Assembly (NCBI GenBank): GCA_038237845.1
Contig: JBBRYH010000013.1
Location: 5,454 to 69,453 of the forward strand
Direction of reading: 5' to 3'
Source of the DNA: Bacteroidia bacterium
Lineage (GTDB): Bacteria; Bacteroidota; Bacteroidia; Palsa-965
Length of the DNA: 64,000 nucleotides
This document shows positions 9,258 to 34,798 of the stretch, piece after piece. The notes below the pieces were generated by a model that saw only the letters and a program-made list of their open reading frames with translations, was not told the origin of the DNA and ran no database searches. The translations under genes and the position numbers were made by a program. Numbering within the stretch: the first letter of the stretch is position 1; each line of letters begins with the position of its first letter.

Positions 9258-9294
9258 AAAGAAAAACGGGAATAGAAATAAATCTATCCCCGTT
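9258..9294 (-). terminator. rho-independent terminator downstream of the 1359-aa ORF
   Basis: 11-bp stem (aacgggaatag / ctatccccgtt, one mismatch) with an 8-nt loop, followed on the minus strand by a T-run. It lies about 20 nt after the stop at 9315. Confidence 0.6.
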
Positions 9295-9314
9295 AAGTAA
9301 ATTTAATTTTAAAG

Positions 9315-12300
9315 TTAATGCTGAACAATAATTCTCTTTGTAGATCTTAATTGATCATTTTCAGTTACCAGAATATAAATACCATTTTCATAAGTACTAA
9401 AATCCAATGATAGTTCACCATTCTGATCCTTATCGGAAACAACCGAATAAACAATTCTTCCGGAAATATCTGATATGGAAATTTTAATTGGACTCACAGG
9501 TTTAGTTTTGAAAACAAGTGTTAACAGACCTGTTGTAGGATTTGGAAACACATTCAATTCATTTTGTTCAGTAGTGATTGAATTCGGAGTGATAATATTT
9601 TCTGATAAGTCAGGATTTCCAAGACGGAAGAATGTGGACGTGTTGCTCCGGGCGATAAATCCCTGGTATGCTGTCAATGCAGTAAGCGGAGGTCCATTAA
9701 AAGTAACGCTTGGATAAATCGATCCACATGAAGCAAATACAGCCAGTGAACCGGCAGTAAATATGGAGCCGGATGAGGCATTTACTGATATTCCCATACC
9801 AGTATTTTTTCCTGCACATCCCGTTGTTGTAGAAAATTCAAGGAAATCCGGAATTCCTCCGTTTAAGATTCGGGCAACAAATACTTCATATCCGCCTGCA
9901 ATGGATGTTACCGTGGTAGGTGTAAATCCTGCAAAAGTTGATCCACTATATGCAAGCCCAGTGAAGTAAACATCGTTATTATAAACTGTTATGCTATTGC
10001 CCGATTCAAGAGTACTCGATGCATTTGTCGAACCATAAGCATAGGACCATGTTCCAGTAAACGATAAAGCACTTGTGGCAAAACCTACATAAATATCAGG
10101 TGTTGCAGCGATTGTGAGTGTAGATCCTAAAGTCAATGCCCCCTTATAAGCACCTGTTATATAGCAACGTCCGGTGGCATCAACAAACAGATCTTTAAGA
10201 AATACATCATTGGTGCCATTTCCGCGAATTACATTTGATCCTCCATAAGCTCCGGTTCCAGGAATCAGCTTAACAATGAATAAATCAGTTGTGCCAGCCG
10301 TTGTATTCGTGGCAGCAACGGGGGCAATTACGCTACCACTCACAGAACAACCAACATAAAGATTCCCTGAAGCATCGGTGCCGATGCCGCCAGCAACATC
10401 GGGTTTTGTTGCGAAAGAAGAAGCTATTTTTGTTGACCATATTTCGGTTCCAGAAGAATTGTAGCGAGTAACAAAAACATCTCTGTTGCCTGATGTTGGG
10501 ATGTTGGCAAGATTTCCGAATTTTACCGTTCCTTCAAAATCTCCGGTTACAAAAATTGCATTGTTGACAGCGTCATATTTTATTGCTTTCCCAATTGCTG
10601 AAGATGGAGAACCAGCAATCGGACTTGTGGATTGACGGGCATAGATTGTATTGCCTGTGGTTTTGTCAAGCTTTAAAACAAATACTTCTGTCAAAGAACC
10701 AGAAGGCGATGTTAAAATTTGACTATTTCCAAAATTGATATTTGTTCCTGCAAAAGATCCTGTTACAAGGACATCCCCGTTGTTGTCAAGTGTAATATCA
10801 TATCCTGAACCACCATTATTCGAAATAGTACGGATCCAGATTCCTCCACACTGTTCATTGTATTTTACAATGACAATAGCGTCCTGTGTATAAGTTCCAA
10901 ATGATGGAATATTAGAAGTCTGACTAATTCGACCGGTAGCATAGACATTTCCGATTCCATCAGTAATAATGCCATTAAACAAACTTCTATTATTCAGTCC
11001 TGTAATATATTTTGGCCAACTGCCCGGGCCAATACCCGGATTAACTACAATTGTAATTTGTGCACTCGCCGGACAACTTCCAACATTTCCGGTCCAGTTA
11101 ATTAGGAAAGAGCCAACACCTGAAATTGCAGGATCAAATTGATTACCCACAACACCTGTTCCACTGAAAGTTCCCGTTCCTTGGGAAACTGTTAGGTTCT
11201 GCGCTGGGTCATATTGACACAATGGACCGACAGGAGTAATTGTTACCACTGGCGCAGGATTAACAACAACATTTGTATTTGCAGAAAGTGTACATCCTCC
11301 TTGAGTTACTGTATAAGTCAATGTGAATGTACCGGTTCCAACTGCGCTAGGATTGAATTGATTGGCAGTAATTCCCGGACCACTCCATGTTCCACCTGTC
11401 GGTTGTGCAAATAAGTTTTGAGGTCCCTGAGAACTGCAATATGGGCCATTAGCACCAAATACAATTGTAAAGCTTGCTGTAACAACAATATTGGTAGTCA
11501 CTAAAGTTGTACAACCTGCAAATGGTACATAGTTATAAGTGATAACAAATGTTCCTGATCCCGCAGTGGAAGGCGTAAAAACTCCTGAACTGTTTACCCC
11601 GGTTCCAGTCCAGAAACTTCCTGATGCGGTTGGTGTTGCTACAAGTTGATGACCTACCGCATCATTAGAGCAGAAAGGTCCCGCAGGAGTAATTGTTGGA
11701 ATAGCGCTTGGCGTCACTGTTACAGTTCCGCTTGCAGTTTGCGTGCAGGCGTAATTAACTGTAGCTGTAAAAGTTGTTGTGGCAGTAATTGGACCAGATG
11801 TAACATTATAACCATTTAAATTTCCGGGATTCCATGTGTATGTGGCGTTACAAGGTAGGTAGGGAGTTGGTAGAGCAGTTAATATTGATGAACTTCCATT
11901 ACATACTGTAGTAGGGTTTGCTGTTGCGTTGAGAGTAACAGGTGGTGGAGTTGGATCAATCTGTTTTAAAGAAATATTGTCGATGAAAGTACAATGGGTT
12001 ACTGTATAAACGGCAGGTGAAAAAGTATTTCCTAATGGAGTACCTACGCTTCCTGTACCTGAAACAACAATTGTGGGTGTAACAATTCCTTCAACAAGCA
12101 GATTCATATAGTAAGTGGGATCTCCGCAATACTGGAAATCAAAAACAACATGTTGCCAAGTATCCGGAGTAACTGTAGAAATTGTTACCTGAACAGGTGC
12201 TGTATAATAAAGTTGGGAATGAAAACCGGGGAAAGGATTATTGGTAAACTGAAGCTGGAATTGGAAAGTCTGTCCGACTGCAAATCCCGTCTTTTCAAAA

Positions 12301-21234: not shown

Positions 21235-23595
21235 CTAAAAAGAAATCTTAAAACTAGGCACAACCAACAATCCTGTTTGATGACTCGTAACAATGGAGTT
21301 GGTAGCCGCATCATAATCCTGCGTAAATACATTTTTATGATTGGTCGCATTCAGAAACTCAACTGATAATTGCTGAGTAATGTGTTTGCCATTATGTATC
21401 CAGCCTATTTTAGAATCAATTCTGAAATATCCATCATAGCGACTTTCAAAAGCGTGGCTGTAATCATAAACTGCATATCCGGCTAACTGAGACGCGGCGA
21501 GATTAATTGGAATATATCTTTTTCCGCCTGCAGCATTCATTTTTAGATCAAGAGAAATCGTATTCTTAGTATTCAATTTAAATTCTTTACCACCTAAAAG
21601 ATTCACAACATAATTTCCTGAAAAAGCAGTTTGCCTTTCAATATTATCATAAGGAGTGCAATAGGAGCGATAAAAAGAAGTCGTCAATAAAAAATAATAT
21701 CCTTTGCTGTAGAATTTTTCCACGGTTAATTCTATGCCATAATTTCTTCCAGTTCCACTGTTTAACAAACTGTCAATTCCAGGAGCATCAAAATTTGCTC
21801 CCTCATTTAATCCGGAATAAGTTGGGTATTGTGAACGAACAGGAATGTCATAGAGATATTGATAATAAACTTCTGCTTTTAATCGCATGTTCTTTGCAAA
21901 ATTCCAATCGTCTGCCAATACATAATGAATGGCTCTTGAAAAATCAACATCCTTATTTGTTAGGACATAAGATCCGTCAGTCATTAGCGTCTGATTGAAA
22001 TAAGTGAAAATACTTTGCATCTGACTATGCATTCCGGCTCCAATGGAAATAGAATTTTTTTCATTCGTTTGCCATCTGAAACCACCACGAGGTTCAACTG
22101 CATAAGAATTATTTAAAAGCAATAATTGTCCGTGTACACCCAAATTCAACGTAAGGCGATCGGTGAATTTATGTTGCCATTGTGAATACCCTTGTAATAG
22201 CAAAGTGACTTTATCAATATCACGAATAGTATGATCTAGAACGCCATTCAAAAATGCTGTATCATGGAGATTGACAAAAATATCAGTTGCAGTAACTCCT
22301 GACTTCAACGTATTCTTTGAATTAAATTTTTCCAGAAACATATAATTCGCAGTAATTTTTCTTTGAAGAAATACACTTCCGTAACTTCTCCATTTTGAAT
22401 TGTCAGCACGTGAAAATGAATCCTGTCGAGTAAGATTCTGCATTCCTGTTGCTGCAATGGTGAATTTGCTCAGCCCTGTTGAACCAACGATATAAGTATG
22501 CGTAATGCCAGTCATTCCAGTTTTGGTTCCATAGTCTGTGTCATAACCTCCTTGTGTATAGAGGTTGAGTTTTGTAGTATCAATATCACTATCCCATAAG
22601 GCAATGAAGCTGATGCCACCAACTCCCCAGATATTAAAATCACCGAATTTATTGGTCGGAAAATTTAAATTATAAGAAAGATCTTGATATTTTGGAATGG
22701 CACTTCCTGTTCCGAAATCAACTCCTATTTTTTGAAATAATACCAATGATGAAAAACGATAATTTACTAAAAAGGAGGAACCCATTTTTTTTGAAATCGG
22801 TCCTTCCATTCCGCCTTCAAATCCATTAAAGCCAACTTGAGCCATGAACTCAAATTTTTCATTATTCCCTTTGCGCATTCTCAAATCAAAAACTCCCGAA
22901 GTTGCATTTCCATATTCAGCCGGAAAAGCACTGGTCATAAAGTCGGAATTGTCAAGCACGTTATTATTTAACATACTTACAGGGCCGCCTGTGCTACCGA
23001 AAGAACCAAAGTGATTTGGATTCGGAATGTCGGCACCATTCAATCGCCATAAAACGCCAAGTGGAGAGTTGCCTCGTATTACAACATCGTTTCTTGAATC
23101 ATCAGCTCCGCTAACACCCGCATAATTTTGTGCCATTCTCGAAGGATCACCTAGGCTTCCAGCATAACGTTGTGTTTCTTCGATGGTAAATGATCTACCA
23201 CTCACGGAAATCATTTCATTCAAGGGTTTTGTTTTTTCTGATTCACCGGTAATAACAACTTCTTCTCCATTAATTACCGACTCTTCCATTTCAACATTCA
23301 GTACAATTTCTTTTCCAGAGGTAACCACAACTGGCATAGAACGGTCTTTGTATCCAAGATATTTAAACACCATTAGATGTCGGCCGATCGTTACATTTTC
23401 AAAGCGAAAATTTCCATCAACATCTGTGGACGTATTGCGCATGTTTACACCCGTATCAGCTAATAAAACGATTACCCCAACAAGTTCGCTTTTGGTTTGA
23501 TTATCCACGATTTGACCACGAACAGTTTGTGTCGGAATTTGCGCCAGGATTTCAAAACCTGAAAAAAGAAATAAGTAGAGGAAAATATTTTTCAT
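21235..23595 (-). CDS. TonB-dependent receptor with N-terminal carboxypeptidase-regulatory-like domain
   Basis: Signal peptide, then VRGQIVDNQTK...GNFRFENV (CarboxypepD_reg-like), a plug segment (VVIRGNSPLGVLWRLNG), a long beta-rich region and a terminal aromatic residue (KISF). Confidence 0.8.
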   Translation of the reverse strand: MKNIFLYLFLFSGFEILAQIPTQTVRGQIVDNQTKSELVGVIVLLADTGVNMRNTSTDVDGNFRFENVTIGRHLMVFKYLGYKDRSMPVVVTSGKEIVLNVEMEESVINGEEVVITGESEKTKPLNEMISVSGRSFTIEETQRYAGSLGDPSRMAQNYAGVSGADDSRNDVVIRGNSPLGVLWRLNGADIPNPNHFGSFGSTGGPVSMLNNNVLDNSDFMTSAFPAEYGNATSGVFDLRMRKGNNEKFEFMAQVGFNGFEGGMEGPISKKMGSSFLVNYRFSSLVLFQKIGVDFGTGSAIPKYQDLSYNLNFPTNKFGDFNIWGVGGISFIALWDSDIDTTKLNLYTQGGYDTDYGTKTGMTGITHTYIVGSTGLSKFTIAATGMQNLTRQDSFSRADNSKWRSYGSVFLQRKITANYMFLEKFNSKNTLKSGVTATDIFVNLHDTAFLNGVLDHTIRDIDKVTLLLQGYSQWQHKFTDRLTLNLGVHGQLLLLNNSYAVEPRGGFRWQTNEKNSISIGAGMHSQMQSIFTYFNQTLMTDGSYVLTNKDVDFSRAIHYVLADDWNFAKNMRLKAEVYYQYLYDIPVRSQYPTYSGLNEGANFDAPGIDSLLNSGTGRNYGIELTVEKFYSKGYYFLLTTSFYRSYCTPYDNIERQTAFSGNYVVNLLGGKEFKLNTKNTISLDLKMNAAGGKRYIPINLAASQLAGYAVYDYSHAFESRYDGYFRIDSKIGWIHNGKHITQQLSVEFLNATNHKNVFTQDYDAATNSIVTSHQTGLLVVPSFKISF

Positions 23596-23796
23596 GAGCG
23601 TGTAAATTTAGTCAATCTTAAACGAACGTAAAAAGGCTCTTTTGGGCTTAAAAACGGATGATTCTGTCTGAATTCTGTAGAAACCCTTGCTTTGGAGTAA
23701 AAGAGTAAGTTTACATTGCAATAATCTTAAATTTACATTCGGAATTATTTAGGGTTCTACATTCATTCAGATTTGCCATTATTAAACGAATTAAAA

Positions 23797-25476
23797 ATGA
23801 AAAAAATCTTTGCATTATCATCCATGTTGTTCTTTGGCTCACTAGTCTTAAATGCGCAATGGAATCCTAGCCCAACTATAAATAATCCTGTCTGCATGCA
23901 AACAAATGATCAGAAAGATCTTCGAATGATTTCTGATTTTCGTGGGGGTGCAATTATTACTTGGATAGATTTCAGAAACGATCAGAATTCTCCTGGAGTA
24001 TCAGCAGATATTTTTGTGCAGCGTATGAACTCAAATGGAACTGCTCAGTGGACTGCAAATGGCACTGCAGTTTGTATCGATGGTGCAAATCAAACCTTTC
24101 CAGTATTGGCAACAGATGGTAAAAAAGGCGCTATTATAACTTGGCAGGATTGGAGAAGTGGGGATCGTGATATTTATGCTCAACGAATAGATTCTTCTGG
24201 AAATATACTTTGGACTTTAAATGGAGTTGGGGTTGCCGTAAAAAACGCACATCAAAAAAGTCCAAGAATTGCGCCTGATGGAATGAATGGTGCTTTTATC
24301 GTTTGGGAAGATTCTATTAATGGATCTTGGGATATTTATGAGCAGCATATTGATGCTAATGGATTTGCCCAGTGGGCTGCAGGAGGAGTGGCGGTTTGTA
24401 CCAGCGCAGATGAACAAATCAATCCTAAAATGGTCGTAGATGCTGCAGGAAATTCTTACATCACTTGGCAAGATAAACGAAACAGTGTAGATTATGATGT
24501 GTATTGCCAGAAGATGAATTCAAGTGGGGTTGCACAATGGACTGCAAATGGAATTCCAGTGGCAGTAACCACGAATACGCAATCCAATCCGAAAATTGTT
24601 TTGGATTATACTGGAATGGTAATAATCGGCTGGCAGGATAAACGAAATAACATTGATTATAATATCTATGCACAAAGAATAAGTTCTTTAGGTGTTGTTC
24701 AATGGGCTTCTAATGGTGTTGCAGTTTGTAATGCTGTTGGAAATCAAAGTGCAATTGATATGACTACAGAAAATATTACGGATGGTGCTATTATTTCCTG
24801 GAAAGATGGTAGAAATGCAAATGTGAATATTTACTCACAGAAAATTGATTTGTATGGAAATTTCCCATGGTCTATTCCAGCAAACGGAGTTTTGATTTCT
24901 GCTGCAAGTAGAGGTCAAATTAATCCAAACAGTGTTGGAGATGGATATGGAGGAGCAATTGTAGTGTGGCAGGATTCTTTAGCTGGTGTGTGGAACGTTT
25001 ATAGTCAACGAATTTCAACTTATGGAGGATTGCTTTGGACAGCAGGCGGTGTAGCCATTGGAACAGCAGTAGACAATCAAACAAGTCCAAAAAACATTGC
25101 AGATGGAAATGGTGGATGTATTTTTGCATTTCAGGATAAAAGAAATGGCGATTTTGATGTTTATGCTTATAAACTAGATTATGCAGGAGTAGTTTCTTCT
25201 ACAAATGAAATTACCGCTGAAAATAATACATCAATTAATGTATATCCAAATCCATCTTCAGGAGAGATTAATTTTGTTTTGCAAAATCCAGATCCTACAA
25301 ATACAACTTGGGAACTTAAGATTTTTGACATGACCGGGTCGCTTGTATTTTCAAAAGAAATTTCAGGAACGGATCATTATTTAATGAATGAAAATCTTGA
25401 TGCAGGATCATATTATTTTCAAACCATAAATTCAAAAGGTGTGAATAGAATTGGAAGATTTGAAATCATTCATTAA
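23797..25476 (+). CDS. T9SS type A cargo built from eight repeats of about 55 aa (predicted beta-propeller)
   Basis: The ATG at 23797 gives the signal peptide MKKIFALSSMLFFGSLVLNAQ (the track start at 23773 is a TTG). Eight copies of W-[TA]-x-[NG]-G-x-[AP]-V...Q..P...DG.GGAII.WQD.R....D[IV]Y.Q[RK][IM]...G...W. C-terminal VYPNPSSGEINF...GSYYFQT CTD. Confidence 0.8.
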   Translation: MKKIFALSSMLFFGSLVLNAQWNPSPTINNPVCMQTNDQKDLRMISDFRGGAIITWIDFRNDQNSPGVSADIFVQRMNSNGTAQWTANGTAVCIDGANQTFPVLATDGKKGAIITWQDWRSGDRDIYAQRIDSSGNILWTLNGVGVAVKNAHQKSPRIAPDGMNGAFIVWEDSINGSWDIYEQHIDANGFAQWAAGGVAVCTSADEQINPKMVVDAAGNSYITWQDKRNSVDYDVYCQKMNSSGVAQWTANGIPVAVTTNTQSNPKIVLDYTGMVIIGWQDKRNNIDYNIYAQRISSLGVVQWASNGVAVCNAVGNQSAIDMTTENITDGAIISWKDGRNANVNIYSQKIDLYGNFPWSIPANGVLISAASRGQINPNSVGDGYGGAIVVWQDSLAGVWNVYSQRISTYGGLLWTAGGVAIGTAVDNQTSPKNIADGNGGCIFAFQDKRNGDFDVYAYKLDYAGVVSSTNEITAENNTSINVYPNPSSGEINFVLQNPDPTNTTWELKIFDMTGSLVFSKEISGTDHYLMNENLDAGSYYFQTINSKGVNRIGRFEIIH

Positions 25477-25489
25477 TTCAAAGGAAATA

Positions 25490-25528
25490 AAAAGTCCGGA
25501 TAGCATTAGATTTCTATTCGGACTTTTT
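25490..25528 (+). terminator. strong hairpin terminator after the 8-repeat gene (probably bidirectional)
   Basis: 14-bp stem aaaagtccggatag / ctattcggactttt with one G-U pair and a 10-nt loop. An A-run precedes it and a T-run follows. Confidence 0.65.
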
Positions 25529-25534
25529 CGTGAA

Positions 25535-25636
25535 TTAACTTTCAGATCTCTTCGGTCCCGGTTGAAAAGTTTTCAGATAAAACGGTTCGAAATAAGCAAG
25601 ATCTTCAAAATCATTTGCGAGAAATTTGGTTTCTGC
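25535..25636 (-). pseudogene. tsaB: orphan 3-prime fragment of tsaB (33 codons plus stop); left copy of the direct repeat bounding the islet
   Basis: The minus strand encodes AETKFLANDFEDLAYFEPFYLKTFQPGPKRSES-stop, matching the C-terminus of the intact tsaB at 32710-32811. Positions 25557-25636 are identical to 32732-32811 over 80 bp. Confidence 0.8.
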
Positions 25637-25717
25637 GTGTGTCATCATGTTTTTTGATGAACAATTTCCCACTTAAGTTCAGATTTATAAATAACAACCC
25701 AATCATTTGTTTTTGTC

Positions 25718-27538
25718 TTGAATAGTTATAAATTAGCATTTCAACCACAAAAAACGCATCATGAAAATTACCCCCCCCCCTTCAAAATTTTAGGAACTCT
25801 TTCCTTTTTCTTATTAGTAATGTCGGCTGAATCTTTTGCGCAGCAAGGAGCAAAATGGGCAACTGGAGGGAACTCCATTTCTAACGTAGATTTTTTAGGC
25901 ACAACAAATAATTTTCCACTTCTGTTTAAAGTCAACAGCACACAAAAAATGTCGTTAAGTACGACAGGTGTTTTGCAATTGAATTCACTTTCTGGAACAG
26001 GAATCGGTTTTGCGTGGTTTGATGCAAATGGAAATTTATCACGCACAAATTTTCCGAACGATACAAATAAAGTGTTGACTGGTAATGGAACGTTTGCCAG
26101 TTTTTCTTCCGCCGGAGGTTGGGCACATAGCGGAAATAATATTTACAATTCAAATTCCGGATTTGTAGGAATAGGAACGAATAATCCGCAAGCACTTCTT
26201 CATGTAAACGGAAATGCAATTGTCAACGGAACTTTATTTTCGACGGCAATTGCCGGTGTGCAAAGTTTCAGAGCAGATACGATTTTGGGTGCGGTAGAAA
26301 TGATGGTTGCTAATATATTGTGCATGGAAGGAGGTGCGCTTGCGGGAGTTTGTACAAAAACAGGCGATCTTACTTTACAAAGTCATATTGGTTCAAATGG
26401 CAATACGATTATGAACGCAGGTACATTCGGTAATGTTGGAATTGGAAATTTTTCACCGCAATATAAATTAGATGTGAATGGTGATGCGCGATTCAGTGGT
26501 AGTATTAGAACACAACGCATCAGACCTTTGCCGGGTGACACTGCTGTAATTATCGGCGACAGTTCAATCTGGATAAGTACGAGCAATAGAATTTTTCCTT
26601 ATGGTCCAAGCACGATTTATAAAGGCATCGCAATCGGGAATTTGAATTCTACTGCACGAGGACTGAATTCACTTGCGTTCGGAACAGGTGTCTGGACAAC
26701 TTCAACTGCAAATTATGCGGTAGTACTTGGTTCTGGTGCTCCAACAGCCTCCTTGAAAAATGATATTGCTAATTCATTGATGATTGGATTCAACAGTAAT
26801 ATCCCAACTTTATTTGTTGGACCGGCAAGTGGTGCAGGAACTTATGGAAATGTGGGAATCAGGACAACCAATCCGCAAGCAGATTTTCAGGTAGGAAATA
26901 ATGTACAAAAAGTGACAATGGGTTCTTCTTATGGCATTGTCGGATCAAATGGAAATACTTTTAGCAATGCATACATCGGATTTAATGTGGCCCGAACGTC
27001 TCCGGGGCAATGGGGAACAGAAAATGATGGCGGAGGAAATGGCGGAGTTGTTTTATTAGGCGATATGGGCGGAGGTTTCCGCATAAGTGGTATTCCAACA
27101 ACAGGTCCATCAAATCAAACTTTGAGTGATCAATTTATAGCAGATCACACAAAATTTTATGTGCGGAATGATGGTAGAGTAATAATTGGCTCGGAAACAA
27201 TGGTAAATGGGCCTCATGATCAGCCATCAACTTTATTGACTGTAGACGGTACTGCAATCTGCAGAGAACTTTTTGTTACACAAAACAATTGGGCGGATTC
27301 TATTTTTTCTCCTGACTATAATCTTATGCCGTTAACTTCCCTGCAAAATTATTTGGATTCTGCAGGACATTTACCAGGTGTTCCAAGTGCAACAGAAGTA
27401 CAAAAAGATGGTAATAATGTCGGACAAACTGAAATAATTTTATTGGCAAAAATTGAAGAGTTGACTTTATATATGTTGCAATTGCAAAAGCAGAACGCAG
27501 AAATGCAAAAAGAGTTGGACGAAATGAAAGTGAGATAA
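25718..27538 (+). CDS. tail-fibre-like surface protein with a conserved Bacteroidota C-terminal module and terminal coiled coil
   Basis: 606-aa ORF. Repeated VGIGTNNPQALLHVNGNA / VGIGNFSPQYKLDVNGDA / VGIRTTNPQADFQVGNN motifs are typical of trimeric fibre proteins. The C-terminus is WADSIFSPDYNLMPL..L..YL...GHLPGVPSA.EV.K.G.NVG......L.KIEELTLYML plus a coiled coil. The start is ambiguous: TTG at 25718, or ATG at 25761, which is out of frame at the C10 tract. Confidence 0.7.
   Translation: MNSYKLAFQPQKTHHENYPPPFKILGTLSFFLLVMSAESFAQQGAKWATGGNSISNVDFLGTTNNFPLLFKVNSTQKMSLSTTGVLQLNSLSGTGIGFAWFDANGNLSRTNFPNDTNKVLTGNGTFASFSSAGGWAHSGNNIYNSNSGFVGIGTNNPQALLHVNGNAIVNGTLFSTAIAGVQSFRADTILGAVEMMVANILCMEGGALAGVCTKTGDLTLQSHIGSNGNTIMNAGTFGNVGIGNFSPQYKLDVNGDARFSGSIRTQRIRPLPGDTAVIIGDSSIWISTSNRIFPYGPSTIYKGIAIGNLNSTARGLNSLAFGTGVWTTSTANYAVVLGSGAPTASLKNDIANSLMIGFNSNIPTLFVGPASGAGTYGNVGIRTTNPQADFQVGNNVQKVTMGSSYGIVGSNGNTFSNAYIGFNVARTSPGQWGTENDGGGNGGVVLLGDMGGGFRISGIPTTGPSNQTLSDQFIADHTKFYVRNDGRVIIGSETMVNGPHDQPSTLLTVDGTAICRELFVTQNNWADSIFSPDYNLMPLTSLQNYLDSAGHLPGVPSATEVQKDGNNVGQTEIILLAKIEELTLYMLQLQKQNAEMQKELDEMKVR
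25771..25780 (+). repeat. homopolymeric C10 tract within the first codons of the tail-fibre-like gene
   Basis: Ten consecutive C residues, starting 10 nt after the A of the ATG at 25761. It is the only long G/C homopolymer I saw in this AT-rich window. Confidence 0.9.
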
Positions 27539-27541
27539 GTT

Positions 27542-28102
27542 ATGAGGGTTTTAGTGCTGTTTTTTGTTTTGTTATCTATATCTGGTTTTTCTAGGAATAC
27601 TGGTGATACTCTATTGCCAAGAAATTCACTTTGCATTGGTGTGGCTGGCCGTTTTGTGGAAGGAATTGGGTTTAACTATGAATTCATATTGGCTAAAAAG
27701 AAATTAAACAATTATCCTAAAGTCTTTACTTCCCTTGAAGCAAATTTGGGTTATGCTGGATACATTTTTGTAATTTCTGGCATTGGCATTTCAAGAAATT
27801 GGTCATTAATGAAAAATCACAGAATGTATTTTAATGTTGGAGTTATTGGTTCTGGCTTAATTGCTTTGCCCCCAACACCAAAATACATTAGGGAAATGTA
27901 TAAAAACACTTCGAATATTCCAGTTGAAGTTCTTCATCCAATTGAGCCCTGGCTTTTTGGAAATTTTGGGATGAGGTATTTTTTTCACCGTTATTTTATT
28001 CAATTGAGTTTTACACCTTTCCTTTTTTACGACAGAGTTTATAAACATAGGTTTTACGAAAGCCCTTGGGGTGAAATTTCCTTTGGAATAAATTTTAACT
28101 AA
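27542..28102 (+). CDS. hypothetical secreted beta-rich protein (possible small outer-membrane beta-barrel), paralogue of the next gene
   Basis: Signal peptide MRVLVLFFVLLSISGFS. Alternating hydrophobic/aromatic pattern and an aromatic C-terminal segment (ISFGINF). Starts 3 nt after the upstream stop. Confidence 0.6.
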   Translation: MRVLVLFFVLLSISGFSRNTGDTLLPRNSLCIGVAGRFVEGIGFNYEFILAKKKLNNYPKVFTSLEANLGYAGYIFVISGIGISRNWSLMKNHRMYFNVGVIGSGLIALPPTPKYIREMYKNTSNIPVEVLHPIEPWLFGNFGMRYFFHRYFIQLSFTPFLFYDRVYKHRFYESPWGEISFGINFN

Positions 28103-28123
28103 CATCATTTTAAAAAAAAGAAA

Positions 28124-28813
28124 ATGTACATATCCAATCGAATTAATATAATTAGTGTGTTCCTATTGATCTGCGTAAAACTTTCTGCACAGTATAGTGA
28201 GAACTTTGTGCAGAATGGTGGATTCGAAAATGTTGCTTCAGGTTATAGTTGTGTGTGGTGTCCGACTAATTCTCAAAATTCCGGCGATACACTCAATTCC
28301 AAGAATTCCATTTACGTTGAAATCGGAGGTGTAGGCGTTTTTTATTCTATTAATTATGAGCGAATGCTTTTTCAAAAAAATAATTGTAACATCAGTTTTA
28401 ACTCAGGAATAAGTTGTGACCCTTTTATGGTTGGGTATTCGAATCTAGATAATTACTTCTTCCTGTTTCCCAATGCTATTTCTTTTCGCATAGGTAGACA
28501 TTCTTCCAAATTAGAATTTAAATTTAATGGATCATTATTAATCAATCCAAAATTCTTTCCAACAAATATGCCTGAGCGACTTGACCTTAGAAAAAATTAC
28601 ATTTATGGTTATACCTATAAACCACTATGTCAGTTTGTGTTTAACCCGATTCTATCATATCGGTACGAAAAAAACATTTTTTTTTATACATTGAGTTACA
28701 CGCCTTTTCTATATCGACAGTTTGAAAAAGTATCATTTGGCCCTTTTGTAAAAACAGTGTTTTTCTCATGGGCGGGACTAAGTGTTGGTTATCATTTTAA
28801 AAAAACGAAATGA
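28124..28813 (+). CDS. hypothetical secreted beta-rich protein, paralogue of the 27542-28102 product with an extra N-terminal NGGFE module
   Basis: Signal peptide ending in SAQ. It shares GDTL..[RK]NS, [FI]NYE, LS[FY]TPFL[FY] and W[GA]..S[FV]G[IY].F blocks with the upstream protein. Confidence 0.6.
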   Translation: MYISNRINIISVFLLICVKLSAQYSENFVQNGGFENVASGYSCVWCPTNSQNSGDTLNSKNSIYVEIGGVGVFYSINYERMLFQKNNCNISFNSGISCDPFMVGYSNLDNYFFLFPNAISFRIGRHSSKLEFKFNGSLLINPKFFPTNMPERLDLRKNYIYGYTYKPLCQFVFNPILSYRYEKNIFFYTLSYTPFLYRQFEKVSFGPFVKTVFFSWAGLSVGYHFKKTK

Positions 28814-29250
28814 AAAAATCAGTTTTGATCACGGGAATTTTGGTAATGACTTCGGTTTTTACAGTCATTGCTCAAACTAATTTGGTTCCAAATCCAAGTT
28901 TTGAAGATGTCACTGGAGGAAATTATTGTGAGAGTGCAGGGGATTGGAGCTCTGTAATAAGTTGGAAACTACCTGACGGAGGAAATACTTGCGGCCCGGG
29001 AACCGCAGATTATCGTAATTCAATTTGCGGTGGAAATAATAGTGCGCGAAATGGAACTGGGTGGGCATTTTGTTTTATTCAACCTGACCAAAATTATTAT
29101 GAGTATATAACACAAGAATTGTCAAGTACATTAATAGTTGGCCGCAAATATTATGTTTCCTTTTATGTCCAATCATTATCAAATTCGGGAAATACATTTG
29201 GAGCAATTCTCACTTCTACTAGACCAAATCAACTGGAGTTAATAATTTAG
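28810..29250 (+). CDS. truncated NLVPNPSFE-type N-terminal domain protein (probable gene remnant)
   Basis: Overlaps the upstream stop by 4 nt (ATGA). Signal peptide plus QTNLVPNPSFEDV...YYVSFYVQ is homologous to the N-terminus of the 30352-31869 protein. It stops after 146 aa with no CTD. Confidence 0.5.
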   Translation: MKKSVLITGILVMTSVFTVIAQTNLVPNPSFEDVTGGNYCESAGDWSSVISWKLPDGGNTCGPGTADYRNSICGGNNSARNGTGWAFCFIQPDQNYYEYITQELSSTLIVGRKYYVSFYVQSLSNSGNTFGAILTSTRPNQLELII

Positions 29251-29302
29251 TTTGGATAGCTACTGACAAAGGTTTGGCGAGTTATCAGCAATAATTTAAA
29301 TA

Positions 29303-30340
29303 ATGAAACGAACTAAAAAAATATCTATCCTTTTCTTTTTCCTTCTCGGAGGATATTTATTGCTTTTCTCAAAGTGTAGAAAAGATCCGCCTATTCACAA
29401 AAGTTTTCCCGGATGGAAAGTATATACTGCACGAGAGATGGGACTTCCTTATGATGATATTACAGTGATCGTTATTGATCGTTTGTCAAATGTGTGGTTG
29501 TACGGAGGTGTATATTTGGTGAAATATGATAATTCCACCTTCCGAGTAATTCCACCTCCGGCTTCACATCCGACCGCTTTTATCTGTAATTGTGGCGTGG
29601 GTAAGGGAGATTATATTTGGTTCGGCAGTAGTGATGCCGGATTATACAAAATGAATATTTTCGATAATAGTTTGCAACTTTTTACTCAGTCCAATTCCGG
29701 ACTCCCGTCCAATGTGGTTTTTGATTTGGCAGCAGATACTGCGAGCAATATACTTTGGATAGCTACTTCAGGTGGTTTAGTTTTTTTTGATGGAAATAAC
29801 TGGCAGGTATTTGATCAGTTTAATTCACCGATGACAGCTACTGAATCAAAGGCTATTACAATTGACGCGTATGGCTCTAAATGGTTTACTGTTAAAAGAC
29901 ACCCATTGTCGCCTAATGATACTTCGGCATATGTAAAGTTCGACGATCAAAATAATGCATGGAGTTTATTTAATACTTCGAACTCCCCATTCCCAATTTA
30001 TGGCGCCTGGGATGCGGTTGTCGATAATGATAATGGAGTTTGGTTTTCAGGTGTTGGATTAGATCGATATTTCCAAGGGGATTGGATAAAATATAACTCA
30101 ACTAATGTTCCCGGATTTCCAAATGATCAGGTACAATGGCTCGCAAAGGATAATAAAGGAAAAATTTGGATTACAACAGCTCATAATGGGTTAATGACAT
30201 TTTACAATGGACAATGGGAACACCTTACTACAGAAAATTCCGGCTTACCTACCGACACAATTTCGTCTCTTGCAATAAAACAAAATGGAGAGGTGTGGAT
30301 CGGAACTATACATGGAGTTGCGGTATTTGATAATCACTAA
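29303..30340 (+). CDS. stand-alone two-component-regulator-propeller (Reg_prop) repeat protein with N-terminal signal/anchor
   Basis: Repeated ...D..GN[IV]W[IF].T..GL..[FY]DG..W units (NILWIATSGGLVFFDGNNW, KIWITTAHNGLMTFYNGQW, EVWIGTIHGVAVFD). No kinase or DNA-binding domain. Confidence 0.7.
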   Translation: MKRTKKISILFFFLLGGYLLLFSKCRKDPPIHKSFPGWKVYTAREMGLPYDDITVIVIDRLSNVWLYGGVYLVKYDNSTFRVIPPPASHPTAFICNCGVGKGDYIWFGSSDAGLYKMNIFDNSLQLFTQSNSGLPSNVVFDLAADTASNILWIATSGGLVFFDGNNWQVFDQFNSPMTATESKAITIDAYGSKWFTVKRHPLSPNDTSAYVKFDDQNNAWSLFNTSNSPFPIYGAWDAVVDNDNGVWFSGVGLDRYFQGDWIKYNSTNVPGFPNDQVQWLAKDNKGKIWITTAHNGLMTFYNGQWEHLTTENSGLPTDTISSLAIKQNGEVWIGTIHGVAVFDNH

Positions 30341-30351
30341 AAGTCATTGTT

Positions 30352-31869
30352 ATGAAAAGAATTAGCAAATATTGTTTTTTGGTTTTTGCAATTTGTTTTT
30401 TTGTTAAAGCAAATGCTCAAACAAATCCAAACCTCGTTTCAAATCCCGACTTTGAAAGTTATACCCAATGCCCTATTGCTAATTTTAATAGTTTTTTTGT
30501 AACAAATTGGAATCAAGTTACATTTCAGGGTGGATCGTCAGATTATTTTAATGCCTGCAATAACATGCCAAACGGAAATGGAGACATGGGTGTGCCTAAT
30601 AACAATCTCAATAGTAATAATCCAGCTGGTTTAAACGCGAATTCTGGCGTTGCTTATTCAGGACTTCTATCTCGAGAATCTCTTAATGAAATTGAATTTA
30701 TTTATACAACAGTACAGTTAACAGCCGATGTTAAATATGATGTTTCTTTCTATGTTAGTTTAGCCTCCGTTTCAGCATATGCAACTCCTTTGTCAATAGC
30801 GTTTACACAAAATTCTCTTATAACGAACGACCCGCTAAATAATTTTTCCAATGCAAATTTCCGTACATCGCCCTCTGTAATAGATAATAGCGAAACTTGG
30901 CAACAATTGACTTTTGACATTACTCCGAATTCAAGCGGAATATATTATTTGGTAATTGGAAATTTCTCCACCAGTAACGCAGCCCTTTCTACAACAGGTT
31001 GTTTTGCTTGTAGCGATTTCGCCTATTACTACATCGACGATGTTGTAGTAAAAGAACATGAAGGATGTTGTCCTGAAAATCTCACCATTAGTAATACTAC
31101 TCTAACGGGGAATGAAATATTCGGCGCAACAAACACCATCACTGTTGGACCAAATGTAATTACAGAACCAGGAGCCCAGATAGATTTGATTGCAGGAAAT
31201 TCAATTACGTTTCTTCCCGGTTCTGATATCGGCCCGAATGTGAACGCGATGATTGGAGAATGTCCGGGAGCATTTCAGAATGCTTCGAGTACATTACAAA
31301 ATTATATTGTTACGCCCGACGGCGATGGAATTAATGACGAAGTATGTATTGCAATATCCGGCAGTCCAACATATAATGTACAAGTCACGAATATTTTGGG
31401 ACAAGTAATCTTTAATGGTGGTGGAAATGTAAGCGCACAACCACTATGTGTTTGGAATGGAACTTGTAATTTCGGGACATTATGCAATAATGAAAGTGTT
31501 GCAGCTGGGTATTATTTTCTAACATTAACTATCATTGGTTGCGATGGCCTGCCGGTTATTCAGACTTATGACATTTTAGTCTCTTATCCAGGCGGAAGGA
31601 TTTGCTTAATAAATGAAGGTATAGTTGACTCAACTGAAAATGGAAGTTTAATTATTTTCCCAAACCCCGCCACAAATTCAGTTCACATCAACAATATTTC
31701 AGCGAATTCCCAAATAAAGATTTTAGATGTAAAAGGTCAAATTATTTCTGAATTCATTTCTGAAAAGCAAGATATTGATATTGATTTGAAAAATATTTCG
31801 GCAGGAATTTATTTTGTTGAAGTAAATGATGGTCAGAAAAAAGCGGTTAGGAAATTGGTTGTTTATTAG
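30352..31869 (+). CDS. T9SS cargo protein: NLVSNPDFE-type N-terminal domain, internal type-B-like module and terminal type A sorting domain
   Basis: Signal peptide. QTNPNLVSNPDFESY N-domain. Residues about 317-412 (IVTPDGDGINDE...VWNGT...AGYYFLTLTI) resemble a type B CTD. The terminal IFPNPATNSVHI...AGIYFVEV is a type A CTD. Confidence 0.8.
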   Translation: MKRISKYCFLVFAICFFVKANAQTNPNLVSNPDFESYTQCPIANFNSFFVTNWNQVTFQGGSSDYFNACNNMPNGNGDMGVPNNNLNSNNPAGLNANSGVAYSGLLSRESLNEIEFIYTTVQLTADVKYDVSFYVSLASVSAYATPLSIAFTQNSLITNDPLNNFSNANFRTSPSVIDNSETWQQLTFDITPNSSGIYYLVIGNFSTSNAALSTTGCFACSDFAYYYIDDVVVKEHEGCCPENLTISNTTLTGNEIFGATNTITVGPNVITEPGAQIDLIAGNSITFLPGSDIGPNVNAMIGECPGAFQNASSTLQNYIVTPDGDGINDEVCIAISGSPTYNVQVTNILGQVIFNGGGNVSAQPLCVWNGTCNFGTLCNNESVAAGYYFLTLTIIGCDGLPVIQTYDILVSYPGGRICLINEGIVDSTENGSLIIFPNPATNSVHINNISANSQIKILDVKGQIISEFISEKQDIDIDLKNISAGIYFVEVNDGQKKAVRKLVVY

Positions 31870-32065
31870 TTAATTGTTTTTCATTTACCAAATGTGAAAA
31901 CCGAAAAAGAAGTGAAAGAAAACGGATCTAATCTTGAAGAGAACGTGGCATTCGAGAAGAAGATTTTACTTATTTGCCCGTTGGCTTATATTTCTATAAC
32001 ATTTTGGGTAATCAAAACTCATCGGGGAAATTTATAATCGAAAAATAAACTGGTTAGCCCCAAAA

Positions 32066-32740
32066 ATGAGATTCTTTCTTTTCACCTTAATTATTGCATC
32101 CTATTCATTTGTGCATGCGCAATGTTTTCCTCGTCTTTCAATAAAGCTTGGCACAAGTATTTCCGGGCAAATAAAAGAGCCTCAATATTTTGAAGACGGG
32201 GGCATTAAATATGGTTTAGCAGTTTCGGTTGAAACTACAATAATAAGTTTTGGAAAACAAAAACAATTTGATCTGAGTGCAGATATTTCCTTTATCCAGA
32301 AAGGAGGTGGTAACTATAGTCCAATCACAGCACCAAGTGGAGGTACAGGAGGTGAGCGATACCCAGTGACCATCAGCTATTTTTTTTTCGCCGGCATTTA
32401 AATGGAATTTATTTAAGGTGCTTTTTGTAAAAGCAGGTCCAAGGATCGACGCGTTAGTGAATTTTGATACAAAAGACATGTTTGCATCTGATCCCAGGAC
32501 AAGAAAAAATTTAACTCCACCACATTTGGTATAACATATGGGATCGGAATTTGTGCTGGGAAAAAGACAACAAAATTTATATTTGAGCTTGTAGGTCAAA
32601 ATGTTTTTTCGAATTCATCTTACAATCCTGCATCACGACAAACGTTTCGGAATTTTTGTTACTTGGTGAATTTGGGAATTACTTTCTCTCTGAATAAGGA
32701 ATATTTTTTTTACGCCTCTGATCTTTTCGGCCCCGGTTGA
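32066..32740 (+). pseudogene. outer-membrane beta-barrel (OMP_b-brl_2 / porin-family-like) gene disrupted by two frameshifts
   Basis: Frame 0 (32066-32401) has a signal peptide and beta-strand pattern, then stops just after a T9 run (32380-32388). The sense continues in frame +1 (SPAFKWNLFKVLFVKAGPRIDALVNFD...). It returns to frame 0 near an A6 run (about 32503-32508) with FGITYGIGICAGKKTTKFIFELVGQ...YLVNLGITFSL. Confidence 0.5.
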
Positions 32741-32811
32741 AAAGTTTTCAGATAAAACGGTTCGAAATAAGCAAGATCTTCAAAATCATTTGCGAGAAAT
32801 TTGGTTTCTGC
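32710..32811 (-). repeat. right copy of the 102-bp direct repeat (inside intact tsaB)
   Basis: 32732-32811 is identical to 25557-25636. 32710-32731 matches 25535-25556 with 7 mismatches, mostly at synonymous positions. Confidence 0.9.
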
Positions 32812-33393
32812 AATCGACATTAAATGTTTCGCGGAACAATATCCTGAATCAGTAAAAACCGCATTCGGAAATTTACTCAGCATTTCTTTTGCCTTCGGCA
32901 TTCCATCACCGGAAAAAAGGATGCGGTCTTCTGCAAGCAAAATGGAAAATGAATCTTCGTTTAAAATATGTGGTTCTACTTTTTCAATTTCATTTCCTAA
33001 GTGATCATAGATTGCACAATACACTTCCATTCTTCTAGCATCTAACATTGGACAAAGAAGATCGCCGGGTTTTGCTTCTGTCTGCATGCCGCAAGCCATT
33101 GCTTCTAAAGTTCCAATCGCAATTAAAGGTTTTGTTAAAGCGTAACAAATTCCTTTTGCAGCCGAAACTCCAATTCGCAATCCTGTATATGAACCAGGCC
33201 CTTTGCTAACTGCAACCGCATCTAAATCTTTAAAAGTAATACCAGCTTCCTTAACAACCTCTTCACAGAAAACAGTTAGCACTTCTGCATGCCGATTGGC
33301 TTCATTTATTTCGCGAAAAGAAATTATTTTTCCATCCCGCGATAATGCGACAGAACAGATAGTAGTAGACGATTCAAGTAATAAGATTTGCAA
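32710..33393 (-). CDS. tsaB: tRNA N6-threonylcarbamoyladenosine synthesis protein TsaB
   Basis: 227 aa. MQILLLESSTTICSVAL...GPGSYTGLRIGVSAAKG is the TsaB/YeaZ signature. Confidence 0.9.
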   Translation of the reverse strand: MQILLLESSTTICSVALSRDGKIISFREINEANRHAEVLTVFCEEVVKEAGITFKDLDAVAVSKGPGSYTGLRIGVSAAKGICYALTKPLIAIGTLEAMACGMQTEAKPGDLLCPMLDARRMEVYCAIYDHLGNEIEKVEPHILNEDSFSILLAEDRILFSGDGMPKAKEMLSKFPNAVFTDSGYCSAKHLMSIAETKFLANDFEDLAYFEPFYLKTFQPGPKRSEA

Positions 33394-33418: not shown

Positions 33419-34798
33419 TTATTTTTCAATTACGGATAATTGTTCTTTAGTCACCTTGTCCACCTTTGCCCCATTAAACAAAAGTGTACTAATGGATTTG
33501 TAGGGAGCACTTACAACTTCATCATTTTCTTTCAGTCCCGAAACAATTTCTATGAACATATTATCTTCCACTCCTGTTTTAACAGGAACCAATTTTACAG
33601 TTCCATCGCGATAAACGAAAACACATTCGATCGGTTTTTTCTCTTCTTTCTTTTCTTTGTTTTTAGAATCGCCAACAACAATAGATTGATTTTCATCACC
33701 ACCTGGTCCGCCCGACATTTTATCATCCTTTTCACCTACACCATGTTTAGTTGTTGTATCCAATCGAGTAGTAACAGATTGAATCGGAATAGTAATAACT
33801 CCATAAACAGATTTTGTTTGAATTTCCACTGTTGCAGACATGCCGGGAAGAAAACAATAACGATCAGGATGTAGAGGATCAATAAGATCCAGATATGAAT
33901 CTCTAAGAATGCGAATTTTCACAGGGAAATTTGTTACTTGATCACTGGAAACACCAAGTGTATTTGCTGAGTTTGCAACTTCAGTTACAATGCCTTTAAA
34001 TTTTCTATTGTTGTGTGCATCTACTTCAATTAATGCGGTATCACCTTCCATCACGCGCAGAATATCATTTTCATTGACATCAACCTGAACTTCCATTTCA
34101 TTTAAGTTAGCAAGACGCATAATTTCTGTTCCTTCCATTTGAGCCATACCGATGATACGTTCGCCTTTGCGCTTATTTAATTTGGAAATTGTTCCATCGA
34201 CAGGAGCATAAATTGTCGTTTTAGCAAGGTTGTCGTTTGCTTCTTTCAAAGAGGCTTGGGTACTGCTAACATTAAAATCTGCACTCTTTACACTTTCTCC
34301 TGAAGCGTTAACATCTGCAACAGCACTTTCGTAAGTTGCTTTTATCTGTTCAAATTCTGCATCAGAAATAGCTTGCTGATCATGCAATTTTTTATTTCGA
34401 TTATAATTTGCTTCAGCATTTAGAAATTGTGCTTTGGATTGTTCCATTCTTGCAGAGCTATTCGCCAATTGTGCCTTTGCGCCGTTTAATGTAGAAGACA
34501 TTCGTTGTACTGCTGATTGATAAATAATAGGATCAATGCGCAATAATAAATCTCCTTTACGAACGGTGTCTCCTTCTTTTACAAGCAATTCAACAATCTC
34601 TCCTGACACATCAGAAGAAATTTTCACTTCTACTTCAGGCTGCACTTTTCCGCTTGCAGAAACAATTTCAGTGATGTCTCTTTTGGTGGCATTTTCAGTT
34701 GCAACTTTTAGTGTTTCTGCCCCGGAACCTTTTTTCCAAATGACAATAACAATAAGTAACGCTATCAAAATTCCGCCGATGATTAAAAATCGTTTCAT
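33419..34798 (-). CDS. efflux transporter periplasmic adaptor subunit (HlyD/MacA-type membrane fusion protein)
   Basis: N-terminal membrane anchor, lipoyl-like segments (VKEGDTVRKGDLLLRID), a long coiled-coil region and a beta-barrel C-terminal part. Confidence 0.85.
   Translation of the reverse strand: MKRFLIIGGILIALLIVIVIWKKGSGAETLKVATENATKRDITEIVSASGKVQPEVEVKISSDVSGEIVELLVKEGDTVRKGDLLLRIDPIIYQSAVQRMSSTLNGAKAQLANSSARMEQSKAQFLNAEANYNRNKKLHDQQAISDAEFEQIKATYESAVADVNASGESVKSADFNVSSTQASLKEANDNLAKTTIYAPVDGTISKLNKRKGERIIGMAQMEGTEIMRLANLNEMEVQVDVNENDILRVMEGDTALIEVDAHNNRKFKGIVTEVANSANTLGVSSDQVTNFPVKIRILRDSYLDLIDPLHPDRYCFLPGMSATVEIQTKSVYGVITIPIQSVTTRLDTTTKHGVGEKDDKMSGGPGGDENQSIVVGDSKNKEKKEEKKPIECVFVYRDGTVKLVPVKTGVEDNMFIEIVSGLKENDEVVSAPYKSISTLLFNGAKVDKVTKEQLSVIEK

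Follow-up and report, generated by a model that had tools for sequence, protein, structure and literature searches.

A truncated second tsaB end in a variable surface-gene slot of an uncultured Bacteroidia bacterium as a candidate scar of recombination

Direct repeats of a gene's 3' end around accessory DNA are familiar from elements that integrate at such an end and supply a replacement for it, as do e14 or phage 21 at icd of E. coli, and ICESt1/ICESt3 and the integrase-less cis-mobilisable elements (CIMEs) at fda of Streptococcus thermophilus. A similar geometry occurs at the housekeeping tRNA-modification gene tsaB in the stretch of 64,000 nucleotides analysed here (the window; contig JBBRYH010000013.1 of a Bacteroidia bacterium, assembly GCA_038237845.1), in which an orphan second tsaB 3' end lies 7 kb downstream of the intact gene and in the same orientation. 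Two other classes of described systems are close to this locus. Hotspots without mobile elements diversify through recombination at flanking core genes (PMC5635113). In addition, illegitimate displacement is proposed to leave orphaned 3' regions behind, such as the orphan toxin ends of Rhs and contact-dependent inhibition (CDI) systems and the immunity arrays of the V. cholerae type VI secretion system (T6SS; PMC5361080), and homology-facilitated illegitimate recombination is described for Acinetobacter, S. pneumoniae and P. stutzeri (as cited within PMC5361080). A preliminary description of the window had interpreted the locus as a site-specific integration into tsaB; the comparisons presented here lead us, on balance, to favour a scar of ordinary recombination that joined two versions of a variable surface-gene slot from related lineages.

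The two tsaB ends are identical at 80 of 80 positions (25557-25636 and 32732-32811), and between this core and the matching stop codons (25535-25537 and 32710-32712) exactly 7 mismatches separate them, four being synonymous third-position changes (in G, K, S and E codons) and three falling into the last codon (Ala GCG versus Ser AGT). Both observations had been made before and hold. The length of the duplication, earlier given as 102 bp, had been underestimated, as the homology to tsaB continues for 12 more diverged codons past 25636 in the orphan, to about 25672 (about 25670 when compared with relatives). These codons read VGNCSSKNMMTH in the orphan, SGYCSAKHLMSI in the intact gene and GNCSAK[HN]... 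in relatives, giving C-termini of the form VGNCSSKNMMTH-AETKF...QPG-PKRSES for the orphan and SGYCSAKHLMSI-AETKF...QPG-PKRSEA for the intact gene, each followed by the stop. The full duplicated stretch amounts to about 135 bp, i.e., 44 in-frame codons plus the stop from 25535 to about 25672 (counterpart 32710-32847), and a repeat search recovered 25542-25669 against 32717-32844 at 88% identity. The direct repeats, an 80-bp core inside a 135-bp repeat, bracket 7.1 kb of accessory DNA (the islet). On both sides the perfect core is flanked by diverged, still homologous sequence, and given a flank identity of about 63% a perfect run of 80 bp is far above chance. At the 5' limit of the homology between orphan and tsaB there is a short identical stretch, ATTGTTC. 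The other end of the orphan, its stop codon, is situated 6 bp from a bidirectional terminator common to a convergent gene that encodes a predicted cargo protein of the type IX secretion system (T9SS) with eight repeats (the 8-repeat gene). The terminator hairpin (A5-stem-T5), located between the stop of the 8-repeat gene (25476) and that of the orphan, had previously been called strong, in agreement with folding energies of -17.9 and -14.7 kcal/mol (z -4.0 and -3.5), one for each strand. The compact spacing of terminator and orphan would fit a formerly native gene pair, consisting of the 8-repeat gene and a tsaB end.

The diverged parts of the repeat indicate the nature of the two copies. In the flanks of the core, 20 of 54 nucleotides differ between orphan and intact gene; the changes are synonymous-biased and create no stop codon. 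The orphan retains each of the 11 flank residues that are conserved in the family (G, C, S, K, M ... G, P, K, R, S, E), an outcome that random placement of 20 substitutions achieved in 0 of 200,000 trials, and the observed amino-acid identity of the flanks was reached by random placement at p = 0.0012. The family motif GNCS, the ancestral form, is kept in the orphan, while the intact gene has GYCS. Moreover, the orphan flanks match those of relatives at up to 37/52 positions and the flanks of the intact gene at up to 36/52, compared to 32/52 between the two copies. Because 20 of the 54 flank nucleotides differ and all conserved residues are nevertheless kept, the orphan is, as judged from this pattern, the end of a separately evolved, once-functional second tsaB allele and not a drifting resident copy. 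The earlier view that two diverged tsaB ends are present, both coding-competent, was thereby borne out, and their flanks diverged under purifying selection, strongly indicating that foreign or second-lineage DNA was involved. A donor of the orphan was sought among the C-termini of 120 TsaB homologues, none of which matched GNCSSKNMMTH...RSES; resemblances were partial, e.g., that of P0135 with KNMM.

Within the core, the copies are identical at 80/80 positions, compared to at most 69/80 with tsaB of any relative, and a derived Thr is common to both (AETKF, versus AEKKF and similar in relatives). Identity that is so sharply bounded inside diverged homology is a signature of conversion or heteroduplex repair, unlike that of strand exchange by an integrase, and points to the core being a gene-conversion or heteroduplex-repair tract.

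To place the locus, the surroundings of tsaB were compared with those of 16 relatives with TsaB identities of 69-86%, i.e., 17 genomes including the window. No conspecific genome was found in the collections searched (exact-protein look-up; genomes, metagenomes, 5.8 billion proteins), the closest TsaB being 85-86% identical. Synteny extends on one side over genes for an M61 peptidase, a His kinase, LytTR, PAP2, ACP phosphodiesterase, OEP and HlyD proteins up to tsaB, and on the other side over g786, which encodes a predicted outer-membrane protein, a 328-aa gene, DsbH and an M90 peptidase. Among the 17 genomes, the tsaB-g786 slot occurs in five states. In 12 of the 16 relatives (L002-L007, L081, L082, L143, L148-L150) tsaB directly adjoins the g786 homologue, with a gap of -4 to about 130 bp. 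At locus L001 the slot contains only one gene, an intact 212-aa homologue of the last islet gene (i7), and neither islet nor orphan; here, DNA homology to the window is unbroken from 33387 to 32059 at 79%, running from the tsaB interior through the stop and the 3' untranslated region as far as the start of i7. Two unrelated open reading frames (ORFs) of 221 and 59 aa occupy the slot in L144/L145. The slot of L142 contains, in the same orientation as in the window, a homologue of i1, the first islet gene (54% identity), two genes similar to i2 and a gene for a 681-aa CHU_C/Por_Secre_tail protein, and neither an orphan tsaB end nor the 8-repeat gene. Pfam lists for the slots of L142, L144 and L001-type loci contained no mobility proteins.

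The gene set in L142 is one instance of a three-part, so far unannotated surface cassette that recurs in at least four chromosomal contexts of the clade (L139-L142; window 25761-31869). It encodes a protein of roughly 590 aa that matches no Pfam family, small outer-membrane-like proteins (about 190 aa each, one to three per cassette) and a CHU_C/Por_Secre_tail protein (about 690 aa). The cassette is located beside recG in L139 and L140, the latter with two copies, and at another locus in L141, and no flanking direct repeats, gene fragments or mobility genes were found at the cassette loci of L139-L142.

The predicted empty site, with the 8-repeat gene, the terminator and tsaB directly adjacent, was found in no relative. 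No homologue of the 8-repeat gene occurs within 10 kb of tsaB at any locus examined; homologues of at most 58% identity are located elsewhere, heading a VTC/DUF4956/DUF2490 operon. The real empty site is the junction of tsaB and g786, and as the 12 relatives that possess it lack the 8-repeat gene there, this gene must have been inserted as well. Compared to the tsaB-g786 arrangement, the extra DNA in the window therefore extends over 23596-32709, about 8.4-9 kb, with the orphan inside and not at its edge. The intergenic junctions (23560-23800, 25440-25560, 25640-25770, 31860-32070) showed no homology to any fetched locus, nothing but the tsaB end was found duplicated in the interval by repeat search, and no third tsaB remnant was detected upstream of g786, where the local alignment score was within the shuffle range.

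In the reading that we favour, the slot between tsaB and g786 would be a hotspot without mobile elements in an uncultured Bacteroidia/Flavobacteriales-like clade, through which accessory surface-protein genes may be exchanged by the cell's own recombination machinery. The window would then contain two slot fillings in tandem, (a) tsaB, i7 and the T9SS cassette i1-i6, and (b) the terminator and the 8-repeat T9SS gene. The orphan would be the seam between them, the 3' end left by the tsaB gene that once accompanied filling (b), either in a related lineage or in the resident before its replacement. The joint may have arisen by aberrant recombination between two diverged haplotypes. This could have occurred by one homologous end in a flanking core gene and an illegitimate join around tsaB codon 183, i.e., homology-facilitated illegitimate recombination, or by a single Campbell-type crossover inside the short tsaB homology. 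The central 80 bp would have become identical by heteroduplex mismatch repair or by later conversion from the intact gene.

The data show the two alleles, the sharply bounded identity tract, the variable slot, the lack of recombinase genes and the decay of three islet genes. By which pathway recombination took place, in which direction DNA was transferred and how many events occurred we infer from the arrangement, and three variants fit equally well. (i) A resident tsaB-i7-cassette-g786 could have received tsaB'-terminator-8-repeat gene-g786' from a relative, with the anchor in g786 and an illegitimate join upstream of i1. (ii) Alternatively, a donor HlyD-tsaB-i7-cassette anchored upstream could have entered a resident tsaB-terminator-8-repeat gene-g786, with the illegitimate join around the resident codon 183. 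(iii) Finally, a circularised donor fragment could have been inserted through one Campbell-type crossover within the 135 bp of homology, where co-directional mismatch repair of a symmetric heteroduplex would produce the core in one step, while variants (i) and (ii) would require a later conversion of 80 bp. Parsimony slightly favours variant (i), as both of its parts have precedents, tsaB-i7 in L001 and the cassette within the slot in L142.

Several points weigh against this interpretation. None of the databases searched contained either parental haplotype, tsaB-terminator-8-repeat gene-g786 or tsaB-i7-cassette-g786, and the TsaB identity of the relatives does not exceed 86%. Sliding windows over g786 and HlyD-tsaB, compared with nine relatives each, gave star-like relationships in which neither breakpoints nor a mosaic structure could be resolved. 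Recombination or conversion on about 135 bp of about 80%-identical DNA is expected to be rare, and the direct-repeat geometry is equally what an integrase would leave. Furthermore, the whole case comes from a single metagenomic contig.

The likeness to the hotspots of PMC5635113 lies in variable accessory content between the same core genes and in the lack of integrases, transposases and tRNA genes. A possible counterpart of the recombination in a flanking core gene would be the second tsaB allele fragment together with the presumed 80-bp conversion tract. In contrast, the model for those hotspots invokes clean, scarless double crossovers, whereas the window displays a truncated core-gene copy and stacked fillings; and one genome with relatives at 69-86% TsaB identity, unlike a species pangenome, does not allow turnover rates to be measured. 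With Rhs/CDI and T6SS orphans the locus shares an orphan 3' fragment downstream of the intact gene, in the same orientation and beside what would be its former downstream partner, the absence of a recombinase, and a proposed combination of one homologous anchor with one illegitimate joint. Unlike in those systems, the gene is a housekeeping gene and not a polymorphic toxin, there is one orphan and no array, and nothing at the locus suggests a selective benefit such as retained immunity. Many turnover hotspots are free of mobile-element genes and are thought to diversify via recombination in flanking core genes, where clean double crossovers are traceless; if our interpretation is true, a truncated second allele between two slot fillings would be a rare physical footprint of such turnover. 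The locus would represent a neat single-locus footprint, the mechanism itself not being new. Variation of the cell surface is a plausible selective driver, with T9SS surface-protein cargo and a possible poly-C switch in one of the genes.

The next explanation to be weighed is the original one, according to which an integrative islet entered the tsaB 3' end by means of a recombinase of the tyrosine or serine type and brought a replacement end with it, the recombinase having been lost or acting in trans as for CIMEs. It would account for the direct repeats of a gene 3' end around 7.1 kb of accessory genes, the coding-competent replacement end with synonymous differences and, as an old element, the three decayed genes in the islet; ATTGTTC at the 5' limit of homology could be the crossover site. 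As in the e14/ICESt1/CIME class, functional and orphan end differ mostly synonymously. However, no integrase, transposase or other recombinase was found in the islet by Pfam, NCBIfam and PHROGs searches, confirming what had been noted from the sequence, and profile searches over all ORFs with 150 aa or more identified none elsewhere in the 64-kb window, which also contains neither tRNA genes nor Rfam RNAs. An att-like role of the core had been proposed to be traceable by its occurrence elsewhere; the 80-bp core was not found in viral contigs, and neither plasmids nor phages matched the islet. Recurrent use of the target was not seen, as a second tsaB end within 10 kb was present at none of 137 other Bacteroidota tsaB loci (0/137), and the literature searched on tsaB/yeaZ as an integration site or attB yielded nothing relevant and no element family that targets tsaB.

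Moreover, the end supposedly supplied by the element is, together with i7, collinear with L001, which possesses neither islet nor orphan, and the cassette occurs in the L142 slot and at other loci without repeats. The expected empty site is missing from the relatives, the 8-repeat gene being itself inserted, and strand exchange would leave unexplained why 80 identical bp lie between sides that are about 37% diverged. A deviating composition, which had been suggested as a further check, was not observed either (GC 0.364 in the islet versus 0.369, tetranucleotide distance within the background spread); normal composition is as expected with a donor from the same clade. Of the traits of integrative elements, direct repeats are present, while a recombinase, a matching empty site and recurrent use of the target are absent from the data searched. 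The integration reading is unsupported also in that the repeat is a gene fragment that is homologous on both sides of the identity block and not an att core with unrelated arms. We thus consider integration by a recombinase, now lost or in trans, to be unlikely. Slightly more doubtful still is the specific proposal that the tsaB 3' end is an undescribed att site of Bacteroidota, used by an integrase-less, trans-mobilised (CIME-like) islet with a T9SS cassette, of which the 80 bp would be the att core. The preliminary description had listed decay, mobilisation in trans and homologous recombination as possible origins of an islet without integrase; the evidence points to the last, and a decayed or trans-mobilised islet shares the low probability of integration. 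More generally, a duplicated gene end that brackets accessory genes should not be called an att site without comparative data.

An assembly artefact, i.e., a chimera of two related co-occurring populations or a mis-resolved repeat, so that the two tsaB ends would not be arranged in this way on one chromosome, is improbable. The arrangement was seen once, in one metagenomic contig with a length of 70,255 bp, de Bruijn graphs typically branch at an exact repeat such as this one of 80 bp between diverged flanks, and a C10 tract in i1 and paired frameshifts in i7 could be sequencing errors. However, the copies become distinguishable no farther than about 35 bp from each edge of the core, so that the repeat is bridged by reads of the usual 150 nt; neither tsaB nor the cassette's upstream regions in relatives have any sequence in common with the joint at 25672-25700, which thus offers no k-mer substrate for a false join; and both flanks are in the syntenic order expected from the relatives. 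Least probable is an old in-situ duplication of the tsaB 3' end with a drifting pseudogene whose centre was kept identical by recurrent conversion: the identical core within diverged flanks would be its signature and the native composition agrees with it, but the flank divergence is not that of drift (all conserved residues kept, stop-free, synonymous-biased), the orphan flanks are no farther from relatives than those of the functional gene, the rest of the interval is unduplicated, and the orphan is conserved at this position in none of the 16 relatives, contrary to what an ancient local duplication, the alternative named earlier, would predict.

The features of the interval and its flanks are summarized in Table 1.

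Table 1. Features of the tsaB-g786 interval and adjoining core genes (coordinates within the window)
Feature	Coordinates	Strand	Basis or remark
g786, core flank gene, 786-aa CarboxypepD_reg-domain outer-membrane protein	21235..23595	-	Pfam
8-repeat beta-propeller-like T9SS cargo gene, 567-aa ORF, Por_Secre_tail	23773..25476	+	Pfam, NCBIfam
Intrinsic terminator hairpin, bidirectional	25489..25528	both	folding of both strands
Orphan tsaB 3' fragment	25535..25672	-	44-45 in-frame codons plus stop, truncated at about codon 183; flanks apparently those of another allele that was functional in the past
80-bp identical core, orphan copy	25557..25636	-	80/80 to 32732-32811, maximum 69/80 to any relative
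i1, about 590-aa surface/fibre-like family, no Pfam match	25761..27538	+	homologues (54-64% identity) head the cassette in L139-L142
i2, small predicted outer-membrane protein	27542-28102	+	i2-like genes (1-3 copies) after i1 in L139-L142; one matches OMP_b-brl
i3, small predicted outer-membrane protein	28124-28813	+	cassette gene
i4, 146-aa N-terminal remnant of about 690-aa CHU_C/T9SS cassette protein	28810..29250	+	aligns only to N-termini of 681-695-aa proteins in L139-L142
i5, Reg_prop beta-propeller protein, 345 aa	29303..30340	+	Pfam, NCBIfam; no counterpart in L139-L142, outside the relatives' cassette
i6, T9SS cargo, CHU_C and Por_Secre_tail, 505 aa	30352..31869	+	Pfam; C-terminal part matches cassette CHU_C proteins
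i7, pseudogene of 212-aa signal-peptide gene	32066..32704	+	frameshifts near 32396 and 32530; intact in L001 (10687-11325)
Intact tsaB, 227 aa	32710..33393	-	TIGR03725 167 bits (cut-off 69.3); Pfam TsaD; core copy 32732-32811
HlyD-family membrane-fusion protein, core flank gene	33419..34798	-	syntenic in all relatives

As described before, all islet genes are located on the plus strand. Gene i7 is convergent with tsaB, the stops being about 5 bp apart as in L001, and its frameshifts compensate each other, leaving about 130 nt out of frame in between. A C10 tract at 25771-25780, 3 codons after the i1 ATG (25761), throws this ATG out of frame. It is the only C/G run of at least 8 nucleotides within the 64 kb and is lacking in the L139-L142 homologues; one additional C would yield MKITPPPFKILGTLSFFLLVMSAESFAQQ, a signal peptide resembling those of the homologues. 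The tract may be a switch for phase variation by strand slippage, at present in the OFF state, or may reflect a sequencing error in a homopolymer.

Further observations were made at tsaB and at cassette loci of relatives. In a relative with a 4.96-Mb genome (L148, 10681-10684) the tsaB stop overlaps the g786 start by 4 bp, suggesting that tsaB and g786 were ancestrally co-transcribed; if so, the insertions in the window would have cut g786 off from the tsaB promoter. The junction on the other side of tsaB, towards HlyD, is variable too, being interrupted by an AbiEii toxin gene in L143 (9046-9991), L001 (~9279-9947), L004 (2994-3377) and L150 (1135-1810), preceded by a 94-aa ORF in L143 and L150, while HlyD and tsaB are spaced by only 25 bp in the window. 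In four more distant metagenome-assembled genomes of Bacteroidia (L077-L080; e.g., L077 10001-11098), about 400-480 bp interrupt the tsaB match between residues 103-109 and residue 112, which could stem from a domain insertion, an intein-like element or an intervening sequence. Finally, L139 contains a palindromic intergenic repeat of about 90 bp at 1998-2083 and 9693-9785, one copy just upstream of the cassette, with an appearance similar to that of repetitive extragenic palindromic (REP) sequences.

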